Source of the DNA: an uncultured Nitrososphaerota archaeon
GTDB taxonomy: Archaea > Thermoproteota > EX4484-205 > JAAOZO01
Length of the DNA: 64,000 nucleotides
NCBI GenBank assembly: GCA_964408285.1
Contig: CAYOYV010000001.1
Span: 64,001 to 128,000, forward strand
Direction of reading: 5' to 3'
Position numbers and translations under genes: made by a program. Position 1 is the stretch's first letter. Each line of letters starts with the position of its first letter. The notes under the pieces were generated by a model. The model made no database searches. It saw nothing but the letters and a program-made list of their open reading frames with translations, and was not told where the DNA came from. Below, piece after piece: positions 58,011 to 64,000 of the stretch.

Positions 58011-59273
58011 TCATTTTTCTCCTCCATGTTGTGATAATTCTATACCCTTCGATACAAGCTTGAACTGTCCAGACTCTCTGTCAATGTAAATGGATATTAT
58101 CAATCCTTTCTTAACGGCAGGGTCTCCTTTCGCTCTATATCTCCAATGGGGATCATTCCACGTGGCTATATGGGCCAACAACTGTTGTTTTGTCCTGTTG
58201 CTCTCCGGGTCTTGGCGCATATCCAGTTCAGACACTGTTGTTAACTTGACCTCACATCCAATGAACTCGTGATTAGAATATCCAGAAACGTCGAAGATGT
58301 CGAACCTCTTATCGCCCTGCCCAGGGATATTGTTTGAAGTCGTCGCGATACGTAAGGCTTTGAAATCACTTTTCCTGAGGACTTCCTCAGCTATCTTGCA
58401 TCCTGCCTTTCCTTTTTCGAAGCTGCTGAATCCCCTTGCTTCCTTGAATAGATCAGTTGAGACATAACCCTCACAAGAGTCCAGATTCCCTTTGGTTATT
58501 CTGACATTTTCGACGTATTCCAAAGCAATAGCGCGTTTGCGTTCGTGCGTACCTTTCTTGTATGTCAAAACAAGCTCTTTCAAGGGGTCATTGTAGTGAA
58601 TGGCGAGTATCTCACGTGCCTGTTCTGCGATTATTTCAGATTTCGCTATACCGTAGCCCTCGTACTCAATCTTCAGAACATGCTCATTCCCGAGGTAGTC
58701 TTTGATTAGTAGTTTGGCGTAGGCTACGGTTGCACCGCCCGGTTCCCAACCGAATTCAGTTATCTTGGCCTGAATCTCGCGGGAATCCACAACGATGCGA
58801 ATCCCACCCTCGGCTATTTTGAGCTTGAATGGCAGACCCGCCTTGTCGGCTGCTTCGAGGAATCCAATTGCATTGATCTTTCTCACACTCGCTTCGACTT
58901 TTTCTCCAGGTCCCCCAATCCATTCGGGAACTGAGTGCTTATGTCTCTCTTTGTCCGGGCCATACTCTCTGTATACCCTCTTACTATCAGCTCCTATTTC
59001 AAAGATACATTTCTTCTGGCCCAGGTATTTTTGCAAACTCTCCTTTGGAATCTCCGCGTACAGGTATCCATCGGAACCACGATATGCGATAATCCCTACT
59101 CTGATGCCGTAGGGATAATCGATCAATCTGTTGAGTTCCTCCCGGAGTTCTTCTGGACTAGCCCCTGCCAGGTTCAATTCACGAGCTGTCTTGTCAAATA
59201 TTCGAGCCAGTTCTTCGCGTCTTCTTTCCGCTCTTCTCTTTATGTTCAGAAGTTCGCCAAGTTGCCCCATCAA
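58011..59273 (-). CDS. hypothetical protein with putative C-terminal PD-(D/E)XK nuclease domain
   Basis: KGKAGCKIAEEVL helix, then FDIFD...IGCEVK...KQQL, the order expected for a restriction-endonuclease-fold active site. Confidence 0.6.
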   Translation of the reverse strand: MMGQLGELLNIKRRAERRREELARIFDKTARELNLAGASPEELREELNRLIDYPYGIRVGIIAYRGSDGYLYAEIPKESLQKYLGQKKCIFEIGADSKRVYREYGPDKERHKHSVPEWIGGPGEKVEASVRKINAIGFLEAADKAGLPFKLKIAEGGIRIVVDSREIQAKITEFGWEPGGATVAYAKLLIKDYLGNEHVLKIEYEGYGIAKSEIIAEQAREILAIHYNDPLKELVLTYKKGTHERKRAIALEYVENVRITKGNLDSCEGYVSTDLFKEARGFSSFEKGKAGCKIAEEVLRKSDFKALRIATTSNNIPGQGDKRFDIFDVSGYSNHEFIGCEVKLTTVSELDMRQDPESNRTKQQLLAHIATWNDPHWRYRAKGDPAVKKGLIISIYIDRESGQFKLVSKGIELSQHGGEK

Positions 59274-59302
59274 TCGTCGATACTCCTAAAGCCTTGATCG
59301 AG

Positions 59303-59410
59303 TGCGGCGTCCGGGAGTTTCGGGCAACAGACTGTCTTTCGGACCCGGGACTACTAGCTTTCGTCTTAGATTGGAAGGCTAGTGTCATAACCAGACTAGA
59401 CCAACGCCGC
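59303..59410 (-). tRNA. tRNA-Gly(UCC) with two introns (37/38 and 59/60)
   Basis: Acceptor GCGGCGT/ACGCCGC + A73; anticodon stem CTAGC/GCTAG with TCC at 59375-59373; T stem CCGGG/CCCGG; 12-nt insert 59371-59360 and 21-nt insert 59337-59317 in BHB-like geometry; 75 nt after removal. Confidence 0.85.
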
Positions 59411-59535
59411 ACGCTTCTACGTCGCTTCTGGCATTACATATGTCTTATGTTTCACCGTCTCTCGTTACCTTGTGGAATCCCGTTCTGGAGACATCCACAT
59501 GAAGAAATCCCACTTCTCTTCCACCGGGCGAGATC

Positions 59536-60201
59536 TCAGATCTTCAGGCCTGAGACGAAGAAATTCGCTCCTGACACGAAGATATCTCTCCAGATGAGGC
59601 CGCCAGAATCAAGCAGATACTGCCATTGTCCTAATTCACAGCGGTAGTAGAGCCTTTCGATTGTCTCTTCCCGCTTCCTCCAAGTCACCCAGATCATATC
59701 TCCTCTTTTTCTCGAAACCCTCGATCTCATGATCGCCACCGGAGCCCAAATGGAAGCGGTTATTTTCCCCAGGTTCTTTGAGCTTCTAATGATTTCAGAT
59801 ATTGCCTTGGCGTGATCCAAGCTGGAGAGGTGATGCAACGCAGCCATGCAAACGGACAGATCGAAGGCGCCTTCCCTGAAGGGCAGACTCGCTATGTCCG
59901 CCGCAACCAGATGTATCTTGTGCCTGATGTTTTGTGATTTGGCTTTGGTTCCGGCAAGTTCCAGCATTCTAAGGCTGAGGTCCAGACATACTAGCTCCTT
60001 GCTTATCTCATCGAGGATGGGTAGATTGGTTCCTGGTCCGGATCCGTAGTCGCATGAAATCGCATATGACCCAGCCGTCAATATCCTCTCCAATTCCGGG
60101 AAGGATTTCGACCTAAGTCTAGCGTAGTCACAGGAAAGGACATCATAGGCCTCCATAACGCTGATCCTGTCTGCCAACCGCCCTGATTCAGCTGACGGCA
60201 T
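59536..60201 (-). CDS. Trm9/ALKBH8-like class I SAM methyltransferase
   Basis: AYD.L..DY...R, DYGSGPG, LPF..GAFD..VCMAALHH, SIWA, V.W...ERLYY; start trimmed to avoid overlap with radA (60201, or 60177/60156). Confidence 0.65.
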   Translation of the reverse strand: MPSAESGRLADRISVMEAYDVLSCDYARLRSKSFPELERILTAGSYAISCDYGSGPGTNLPILDEISKELVCLDLSLRMLELAGTKAKSQNIRHKIHLVAADIASLPFREGAFDLSVCMAALHHLSSLDHAKAISEIIRSSKNLGKITASIWAPVAIMRSRVSRKRGDMIWVTWRKREETIERLYYRCELGQWQYLLDSGGLIWRDIFVSGANFFVSGLKI

Positions 60202-60205
60202 CCGC

Positions 60206-60218
60206 TTATAATTTATAT
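60206..60218. promoter_or_regulatory. candidate bidirectional TATA box between radA and the methyltransferase
   Basis: TTATAATTTATAT in the short divergent gap, about 26 nt before the radA ATG (leaderless geometry). Confidence 0.5.
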
Positions 60219-60244
60219 CCAAGCTGAATCCCTCATCCCCATAC

Positions 60245-61234
60245 ATGCCAGCCAAGAAAGGAGAGGAATCAGAGAAATCGAGATTCGAAAGCCTAGAAGA
60301 GATTCCAGGAGTCGGCCCGGCCACGGTAGCAAAGCTGAAGGAGATTGGATATTCCACAGTAGAATCCCTTGCCACAGCCTCTGTAATCGAGCTGGTGAAG
60401 GCAGGAATCTCGGATAAGGTTGCAGCGAGAATCATTTCTCAGGCGAGGCAAGGCATTCAGATAGACTTCACGACTGCTCTAGAAGTCCTCGAGAAAAGGA
60501 AGGAGATCAAGAGAATAACAACTGGTAGCAAGGCACTGGACGAGTTATTAGGAGGTGGGGTTGAGACGATGGCGATAACAGAATTCTTCGGAGAATACGG
60601 CACGGGTAAGTCCCAGATCTGTCACCAACTGTGCGTGAACGCTCAGCTCCCGCCCGAGAAGGGGGGACTTGATGGAAGCGTTCTCTACATCGATACGGAG
60701 AACACCTTCAGACCGGAAAGGATAATAACAATGGCATCGAATGTGGGGCTAAATCCAGAGCAAACTCTGAAGAGGATAATAGTGGCAGATGCATACAATT
60801 CTGATCATCAGATTCTTGTCCTGGAGAAGTCCGATGAGATCATAAAGAGGAATGATGTCAAGCTTGTCATAATCGATTCCTTGACAAGCCACTTCAGGAG
60901 CGAGTATCTTGGAAGGGAATCGCTTGTGACGAGGCAACAGAAGCTCAATGCTCACCTGCACAGACTGGAAAGGTTAGTGGTCGCATTCAATCTGGTAGCT
61001 GTGGTTTCAAACCAGGTGATGGCGAAACCAGACGAGTTCTTCGGACTAGGAGCATACCCAATCGGTGGCCACGTTCTGGGCCATAGGAGTCACAACAGAA
61101 TTTTCGTCAGAAAAGCGGCTGGAGGAAAAGGAAATAGAGTGGCCAGACTAGTGGTGAGCGTGGATAGGCCTGAAGGCGAAGCAATGTTCAGGATCGACGA
61201 AAAGGGAATATCTGATGCCGAGGAAGTAGAGTAA
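60245..61234 (+). CDS. radA: DNA repair and recombination protein RadA
   Basis: HhH N-domain PGVGPAT; F.TA; GEYGTGKSQ; YIDTENTFRPERI; IDSLTSHFRSEY.GR; RQQKL. Confidence 0.97.
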   Translation: MPAKKGEESEKSRFESLEEIPGVGPATVAKLKEIGYSTVESLATASVIELVKAGISDKVAARIISQARQGIQIDFTTALEVLEKRKEIKRITTGSKALDELLGGGVETMAITEFFGEYGTGKSQICHQLCVNAQLPPEKGGLDGSVLYIDTENTFRPERIITMASNVGLNPEQTLKRIIVADAYNSDHQILVLEKSDEIIKRNDVKLVIIDSLTSHFRSEYLGRESLVTRQQKLNAHLHRLERLVVAFNLVAVVSNQVMAKPDEFFGLGAYPIGGHVLGHRSHNRIFVRKAAGGKGNRVARLVVSVDRPEGEAMFRIDEKGISDAEEVE

Positions 61235-63725: not shown

Positions 63726-63797
63726 GGGCCGGTGGTCTAGTGGTATGACGCCGCCCTCACACGGCGGAATTCGTCGGTTCGAATCCGGCCCGGCCCA
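63726..63797 (+). tRNA. tRNA-Val(CAC), intronless, CCA not encoded
   Basis: GGGCCGG/CCGGCCC acceptor + A; CCGCC-CTCACAC-GGCGG anticodon arm; GTCGG-TTCGAAT-CCGGC T arm. Confidence 0.96.
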
Positions 63798-64000
63798 CTG
63801 AATCCACTGATCCACCTGTCAGCACGCGTTCGCTAGGCCGGGGGCAAATTCGGCTGATCCCGCTTGCTTAGTGTTGCCACTCAATTGCCCTGTGAAAGTC
63901 GTCTTCGTGAACCAATCCCCTCTGACTGGCCAAGGATTAGTCTATGGATATATTTGCAGCCGCTCTTTTGCCATACTGGAGCGAAGTCGGCCATCTTCAG

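Follow-up and report, generated by a model that had tools for sequence, protein, structure and literature searches.

Transfer RNA genes with multiple introns of the bulge–helix–bulge (BHB) type are well known, and Sugahara, Fujishima, Kanai and colleagues are said to have described such genes, with introns at non-canonical positions, in Thermoproteales and other TACK archaea. The genome that carries the tRNA-Gly(UCC) gene described here resembles the Thermoproteales type in having several short introns per gene, non-canonical intron sites, including sites in the T-loop, and relaxed BHB motifs. It encodes two paralogs of the splicing endonuclease, as in the heteromeric enzyme of broad specificity, and most of its tRNA genes are missed by standard finders. 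Unlike in the described systems, the lineage does not belong to Thermoproteales, and the predicted mature T-loop of the tRNA lacks U55.

A genomic C at a position of tRNA that is nearly always U has a counterpart in Methanopyrus kandleri, where CDAT8 edits C8 of tRNAs to U8. As in that system, several tRNAs of a single genome are concerned here. The two cases differ in that neither a deaminase domain nor a deaminase–THUMP fusion was found in our source genome, that four of 39 tRNAs are affected, that the same genome has a tRNA in which G55 is compensated by C18, and that the feature is known here from DNA. [quoted passage not shown] Both tRNA-Pyl and the tRNA described here are natural tRNAs with C55 and a non-canonical elbow, the demonstrated activity being that of tRNA-Pyl. 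However, tRNA-Pyl lacks G18, G19 and the T-Psi-C sequence altogether, whereas the tRNA-Gly(UCC) studied here is otherwise fully canonical. Pseudouridine 55 is called the most universally conserved tRNA modification in a passage of a 2021 review on T-loop modifications (PMC7912444), and in one study of a plant RNase P acting on a minimal substrate, the change of U55 to C55 was the mildest of the T-loop substitutions. A search of the full-text literature turned up no report of a C55 or G55 that occurs naturally in cytoplasmic tRNAs of archaea, nor one on the C55 genes of this phylum; C55 genes are present in many public genomes and may have been noted in databases or listed in supplements.

The tRNA-Gly(UCC) gene occupies positions 59303..59410 on the minus strand of the window, i.e., of the whole 64,000-nt stretch of DNA that was analysed. 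The 5' end of the acceptor stem at 59410 and the discriminator A73 at 59303 delimit a 108-nt pre-tRNA. The gene lies between two minus-strand open reading frames (58011-59273 and 59536-60435), of which the downstream one has a length of 420 aa and no Pfam match, and the upstream one encodes a 299-aa class I SAM-dependent methyltransferase (Methyltransf_11/25). The unspliced gene was missed by both ARAGORN and the Rfam tRNA model in scans of the whole window, and a permissive Rfam scan of 59200-59520 gave three weak non-tRNA matches and no tRNA match. The only tRNA that these programs found in the window is an ordinary intron-free tRNA-Val(CAC) with the T-loop T-T-C-G-A-A-T (63726-63798).

The removal by position of both introns (12 nt and 21 nt) yielded a 75-nt sequence that ARAGORN called as tRNA-Gly(tcc). 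When the 21-nt stretch alone was removed, the program reported the identical tRNA-Gly with a 12-nt intron in the anticodon loop, and when the 12-nt stretch alone or nothing was removed, no tRNA was called at this locus. Only with both introns out was the product called as an intron-free tRNA, which bears out the preliminary description of the locus as a tRNA-Gly(UCC) gene with introns at 37/38 and 59/60. Its reading of the minus strand was reproduced as well: the spliced tRNA has G1-C72, C2-G71, G3-C70 and A73, and its T-loop is T-C-C-G-A-A-T, with C55 at 59342. The cloverleaf has stems of 7, 4, 5 and 5 bp and a sensible anticodon, and all four stems are intact, the sole unpaired position being T13-T22 in the D-stem.

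All parts of the gene lie on the minus strand. Exon 1 (59372..59410) comprises the 5' strand of the acceptor stem, the D-arm with G18 and G19, the 5' strand of the anticodon stem, and the loop with the anticodon TCC up to A37. It is 82-95% identical to the 5' halves of Gly tRNA genes of order-level relatives (L002-L022; E values down to 4e-12). Intron 1 (12 nt, 59360..59371) interrupts the gene at 37/38 in a relaxed BHB motif whose central helix, CTTC/GACG, has three of four positions paired, i.e., the one mismatch described previously; its border may be moved by one A with no change in the product. Exon 2 (59338..59359) contains A38, the 3' strand of the anticodon stem, the variable region, the 5' strand of the T-stem, and T-loop positions 54-59 (TCCGAA). 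Intron 2 (21 nt, 59317..59337) interrupts the T-loop at 59/60. Here, too, three of four positions pair in the central helix, formed by TCCG of positions 54-57 and CGAA of the intron, and, as had been described, position 55 faces an intron A (59320..59320), giving a C·A mismatch. Exon 3 (59303..59316) consists of T60 and the 3' strands of the T-stem and the acceptor stem, followed by A73. Both introns thus lie in BHB or relaxed BHB motifs, flanked by the anticodon stem in the case of intron 1 and by the 5-bp T-stem in the case of intron 2. The unconstrained minimum free energy fold of the precursor (z = −1.86) showed the acceptor and anticodon stems and did not show the T-loop BHB. The border between exon 1 and intron 1 is marked independently by short, high-depth contigs of foreign organisms, which match 59371-59410 and part from the window sequence at 59371. 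The summed word depth in metagenome contigs rises from about 5-22 to 100-390 over 59365-59426 because 31-47-nt contigs of other organisms share the conserved Gly 5' exon; the rise therefore says nothing about copy number. The splicing-endonuclease paralogs of the genome (C4:48740-48997 and C8:13446-13700) are represented by two matches to PF01974 that exceed the cut-off, with 105.3 and 67.6 bits.

In the search for orthologs, 49 of 61 genomes (the source genome included) had a match at E <= 10, and the 30 loci listed comprise that of the source genome and those of 29 relatives. In the four same-family relatives with a match (G001, G002, G004 and G005), the gene has an intron at 37/38, whereas its other intron lies in the 3' strand of the acceptor stem instead of at 59/60, so that intron positions are not stable even among members of the family. 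The relatives' Gly genes listed have T at position 55 in 29 of 29 cases, and as T55 is the state of Gly(UCC) in every close relative, the change to C55 is young. The preliminary description had named two findings that would speak against editing when combined, T55 in all relatives and a second intact Gly(UCC) gene; the former was seen among the genes listed, whereas the latter was not found. Taken together, the features of the locus indicate that it is a real and probably working intron-bearing tRNA-Gly(UCC) gene.

The idea that the gene is a decaying or non-functional copy, with the true Gly(UCC) tRNA encoded elsewhere or left unassembled, draws on the uniqueness of C55 among the listed Gly genes of relatives, on the single mismatch in each of the two BHB central helices, and on the absence of 6.3% of marker genes from the assembly (46 contigs, 1.82 Mb, 93.7% complete), in the missing part of which a second copy could fall. 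However, no second Gly(UCC)-like gene was found in the 1.82 Mb, either by BLAST with the intron-free L002 ortholog or when TCC anticodon arms, both intron-bearing and intron-free, were scanned for. The only strong BLAST match to the 5' half was the locus described here, which was also the sole credible tRNA in the anticodon-arm scan. A tRNA with the UCC anticodon is needed to read GGA, and GGA is the commonest Gly codon of this genome (35.8% of the Gly codons in 524 long open reading frames). The stems, apart from T13-T22, and both BHB motifs are intact, and the region is preserved in contigs of other studies (see below). Moreover, U55 is also missing from four further, essential-looking tRNAs of the same genome (Lys-UUU, Glu-UUC, Asn-GUU and Gly-CCC), and five pseudogenes together are unlikely. 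We therefore consider decay, which had been one of the possibilities raised for this locus, to be very unlikely.

Position 55 corresponds to 59342..59342 on the minus strand (G on the plus strand). No difference from the window was seen at this position in the contigs of the three runs that cover it, all inspected as Logan contigs. Run X1, possibly the source run, gave one contig over the whole stretch compared, with a word depth of 22.3 and a single difference, at 59003. Record 8 of run X2 covers 59284-59800 at a depth of 5.4 and differs only at 59725, and record 13 of run X3 covers 59187-59800 at a depth of 5.3 and differs only at 59604 and 59725. A fourth run, X4, has no coverage of 59272-59364 and hence of 59342. 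The search for sequencing runs that contain the locus listed no RNA run. The window sequence from 59284 to 59724 is identical in contigs of two other studies. X2 and X3, both of which belong to other studies, represent other strains, given their difference from the window at 59725 (and that of X3 at 59604). C55 is therefore present in the DNA of at least two samples of other studies, whose strains depart from the window at other positions. An error of assembly or consensus, or a minor strain variant, might be invoked because single-base errors are possible in MAG consensus sequences and because contigs were inspected instead of raw reads; since rare variants are lost from such contigs, a T allele present in a minority could go unseen in them. 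But the agreement at 59342 between the independent re-assembly of the possible source run and two further studies makes the probability of such an error almost negligible, and the earlier suggestion of an assembly error can be set aside.

The mature T-loop depends on the register in which intron 2 is cut. A cut at 56/57 instead of 59/60 would give the T-loop T-C-C-A-A-C-T, which keeps T54, C56, R57 and A58, and the 4-nt central helix in this register, GGGT with intron GCCC, pairs at four of four positions as compared with three of four for 59/60. However, the 56/57 register has no flanking helix and consumes bases of the T-stem, whereas the 59/60 register is directly flanked by the 5-bp T-stem. 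Furthermore, of the 14 T-loop introns of the source genome, 11 pair best in the 59/60 register, the exceptions being Gly-UCC itself and the introns at C8:21595 (55/56) and C11:22732 (58/59). The use of the 56/57 register is thus unlikely, and C55 is kept in both registers. Alternative splicing that would restore T55 was considered and rejected, as no TTC string is present in or beside the T-loop intron and all the registers tried retain C55.

Standard finders performed poorly on the genome as a whole: Rfam matched 18 tRNAs, of which 17 exceeded the cut-off, and ARAGORN, when set to allow introns, gave 21, indicating that most tRNA genes of this genome are cryptic. Two of the ARAGORN calls, labelled as "SeC", were resolved by our intron solver as Arg-TCG and Met-CAT. 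We rebuilt tRNA genes by scanning for acceptor pairing and a T-arm with an optional insert in the loop, and by solving introns via BHB pairing and cloverleaf score, which gave an incomplete catalogue of 39 genes. Position 55 is T in 34 of them, C in four, and G in one. Besides Gly-UCC, with its two introns, C55 is found in Glu-UUC (C14:25383-25476; one intron), in Lys-UUU (C8:53944-54103; four introns), and in Asn-GUU (C14:20491-20619; two introns, the T-loop being intact), while Gly-CCC (C1:44770-44892; three introns) has G55 and C18. The genome-wide check for other C55 tRNAs, proposed in the preliminary description, was therefore positive. When spliced by position, all five non-U55 genes were accepted as tRNAs by ARAGORN, and the central helices of all their 12 introns have three or four of four positions paired. 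The introns of Lys-UUU lie in the D-stem, at 30/31, at the border of the variable region and the T-stem, and at 59/60, each with a 4/4 helix, and their removal shortens the gene from 160 to 74 nt. A Lys(CUU)-like gene (C4:36647-36800; L099) has a 66-nt insert in the T-loop right after T54 and T55, for which no splice register restoring C56 was found.

The orthologs of the other non-U55 genes also have mostly T55: 10 of 10 Asn loci of relatives, 23 of 25 Glu loci (of the other two, one has C55 and one was not read to the T-arm), three of three same-family Lys-UUU orthologs, and the single Gly-CCC ortholog found, that of G002. Thus, the five changes at position 55 are specific to this lineage. 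T-loop introns, mostly at 59/60, occur in 14 of the 39 rebuilt genes, i.e., in 13 besides Gly-UCC. They are present in four of five non-U55 genes and in 10 of 34 U55 genes (one-sided hypergeometric p ~0.047, calculated by hand), so that the association between the loss of U55 and a T-loop intron is marginal; the C55 tRNAs of another genome of the phylum, G026, have intact 7-nt T-loops.

The intron bases that face position 55 largely follow the base of the exon. In the 59/60 introns of Lys-UUU and Glu-UUC a G lies opposite C55, and the helix is paired at four of four positions. In the Glu gene of the same-family genome G002, T55 is opposite an intron A, so that both sides have changed in the source genome, and in the Lys gene of G002 an intron G is opposite T55, a wobble pair that has become a Watson–Crick pair in the source genome. 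In Gly-CCC, G55 faces T, whereas T55 faces G in G002. Gly-UCC is the only case among the C55 and G55 genes in which the intron still fits U55, having A in the opposite position. As a 3/4 helix is also found in two U55 tRNAs of the source genome (C8:21595 and C8:72), one mismatch in this helix is tolerated.

The partner of position 55 in the elbow, position 18, was likewise compared. The four C55 tRNAs of the source genome retain G18 and G19. By contrast, the D-loop of Gly-CCC (A-G-T-C-T-C-G-T-A) has C18 with G55, and its G002 ortholog has G18 with T55. A T-arm pattern with G55 was used to fetch 30 loci, of which 10 were clean 72-nt tRNAs, namely Ala-CGC from six genomes of family f5 and Cys-GCA from four genomes of family f13, and according to our own D-loop alignment all 10 have A at position 18. 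The G55 loci are L251-L258 in f5 and L260-L263 in f13, and the G55 pattern matched in 11 of 11 f13 genomes. In the G55 tRNAs examined, position 18 is never G. Two positions that pair structurally and are under selection behave in this way, unlike decaying genes or a site awaiting deamination.

C55 is also not confined to this genome. The T-arm pattern with C55, GGGTCCRANTCCC, matched in 110 of 301 genomes of the phylum that are at least 90% complete, about one third, and the matches are bound to clades, being found in 45 of 50 genomes of family f5, 16 of 20 of f15, six of 13 of f21, and none of the 10 of f4. A control with the reversed pattern gave, e.g., no matches in G026 as compared with four for GGGTCCRANTCCC. 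In G026, a complete 1.62-Mb genome of another family, four of 42 ARAGORN tRNAs have C55 (Lys-CUU, Lys-UUU, Glu-UUC and Thr-UGU), all of them with G18 and G19. In the complete genome G159 (f21), eight of 14 parsed tRNAs have it (five Leu and three Thr), a sample that is biased, as the loci were chosen by the pattern. In the order-level relative G012, none of 36 matches to the T-arm with acceptor pairing deviates from T54 T55. The C55 tRNAs of the other genomes are like those described here in that they have the T-loop T-C-C-R-A and keep G18 and G19, and Lys-UUU and Glu-UUC are C55 tRNAs in G026 too. They differ in that the changes described here are young, the same-family or same-order orthologs having T55, in that three of the four C55 genes here have a 59/60 intron, and in that none of the C55 tRNAs observed in G026 or G159 is Gly-UCC. 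By this distribution, C55 is a recurrent and stably inherited state of some tRNAs in the phylum, in which the premise of a near-unique C55 does not hold. By Cbf5, with 57-60% identity, the named records closest to the source genome are MAGs that bear the labels Thermoproteota, Thaumarchaeota or Nitrososphaera (sp.).

The preliminary description had proposed that C55 is edited to U in a process coupled to splicing. In its general form, this proposal assumes a post-transcriptional change of C55 to U55, which might precede splicing and let a U55-A pair complete the BHB helix, and that the U is then pseudouridylated. The intron A opposite position 55 of Gly-UCC is complementary to U and not to C, as editing before splicing predicts, C55 occurs in several tRNAs, as in the substrate set of an enzyme, and a precedent exists at position 8 of M. 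kandleri tRNAs, where a deaminase repairs a C that the genome encodes in place of an invariant U. Enzymes that could act on an edited U55 are available as well. Pus10 is encoded by a 438-aa open reading frame (371 bits) and has a match in 59 of 61 genomes of the set, and Cbf5 (346.5 bits) is encoded by a gene at C6:38820-39788 of the source genome (L076:1480-2480). As both are present, the lineage has not abandoned pseudouridine 55 in general, and the explanation that U55 was relaxed by the loss of pseudouridine-55 synthases was rejected, Pus10 being intact and Cbf5 present.

The cbf5 gene itself has an in-frame TGA within the catalytic G-T-L-D motif, and the removal of 15 nt (GTLD|P) restores G-T-L-D-P. 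This insert looks like a BHB-type mRNA intron, presumably of the kind described for cbf5 in Crenarchaeota, to which we liken it. In four same-family relatives the Cbf5 match spans profile positions 70-321 only, so that the gene may be split there or may have a longer interruption at this site.

In contrast to the pseudouridine synthases, no deaminase of the family searched for was found in the source genome. PF00383 (cytidine deaminase) had no match in the source genome at E <= 0.01, the genome being 93.7% complete and PF00383 omitting some deaminase folds, and no deaminase–THUMP fusion was found there, the sole THUMP proteins being ThiI and a 196-aa THUMP-only protein. PF00383 also had no match in G159 and G303, the two complete genomes richest in C55 T-arms, and one match over the cut-off in each of G026, G092 and G109, in open frames of about 175-205 aa. 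By these profile matches, the distribution of C55 does not follow that of a deaminase. Editing is further disfavoured by the G opposite C55 in the Lys-UUU and Glu-UUC introns, with the two-sided change of Glu as compared with G002, consistent with a C at this position at the time of helix formation. The G55 tRNAs with C18 or A18 show that a non-U55 base is tolerated via structural co-variation, in a form that deamination cannot yield, and the two other tRNAs of the genome with one mismatch in the T-loop intron helix show that a 3/4 helix needs no repair. As judged from these sequence comparisons, the editing of C55 to U55 appears quite unlikely. Little probability is also left for the action of an enzyme of no recognised family, which would either deaminate C55 to U, possibly before splicing, or modify it in a C55-specific way, and whose tRNA set would consist of Gly-UCC, Lys-UUU, Glu-UUC and Asn-GUU here and of Lys, Glu, Thr and Leu tRNAs in other families.

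C55 is a true feature of the DNA and is common to other tRNAs of the group, so that neither editing nor decay nor error is needed to account for it. We consider it likely, on the grounds of gene structure and comparison, that the locus is a working Gly(UCC) gene with a natural C55 variant of the elbow and that the C is retained in the mature tRNA. In the course of events that we propose, the 108-nt precursor would be transcribed from the gene, the tRNA-splicing endonuclease with its two paralogous subunits would cut at 37/38 and at 59/60, in both cases within a relaxed BHB motif, and the three exons would be joined by a ligase into the 75-nt tRNA. The T-loop would then depart from the canonical T54-U55-C56-R57-A58 at U55, where both the window and the contigs of the three runs have C. 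[quoted passage not shown] The intron A opposite C55 would be a tolerated, uncompensated mismatch left by a lineage-specific T-to-C change, and not a template or signal for editing.

Five of the 39 rebuilt tRNA genes of this genome lack U55, and tRNA-Gly(UCC) is one tip of a wider pattern. Taken singly, the gene is ordinary for its phylum; it is the phylum-wide loss of U55 in defined tRNAs, together with the co-variation of positions 18 and 55, that merits study. In practical terms, the annotation of MAGs of such archaea misses most of the tRNAs, and models that demand U55 penalise real genes. If the editing by an unrecognised enzyme were true, position 55 would be a second site of tRNA editing in archaea. 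More likely than the action of such an enzyme is that translation in these archaea proceeds partly on tRNAs that lack pseudouridine 55 and have re-paired 18:55 contacts (G:C, A:G and C:G). Should these tRNAs function in the form in which they are encoded, a defined subset of tRNAs must be passed over by Pus10 and Cbf5, and the elbow contact between G18 and pseudouridine 55 would be more evolvable than textbooks say.
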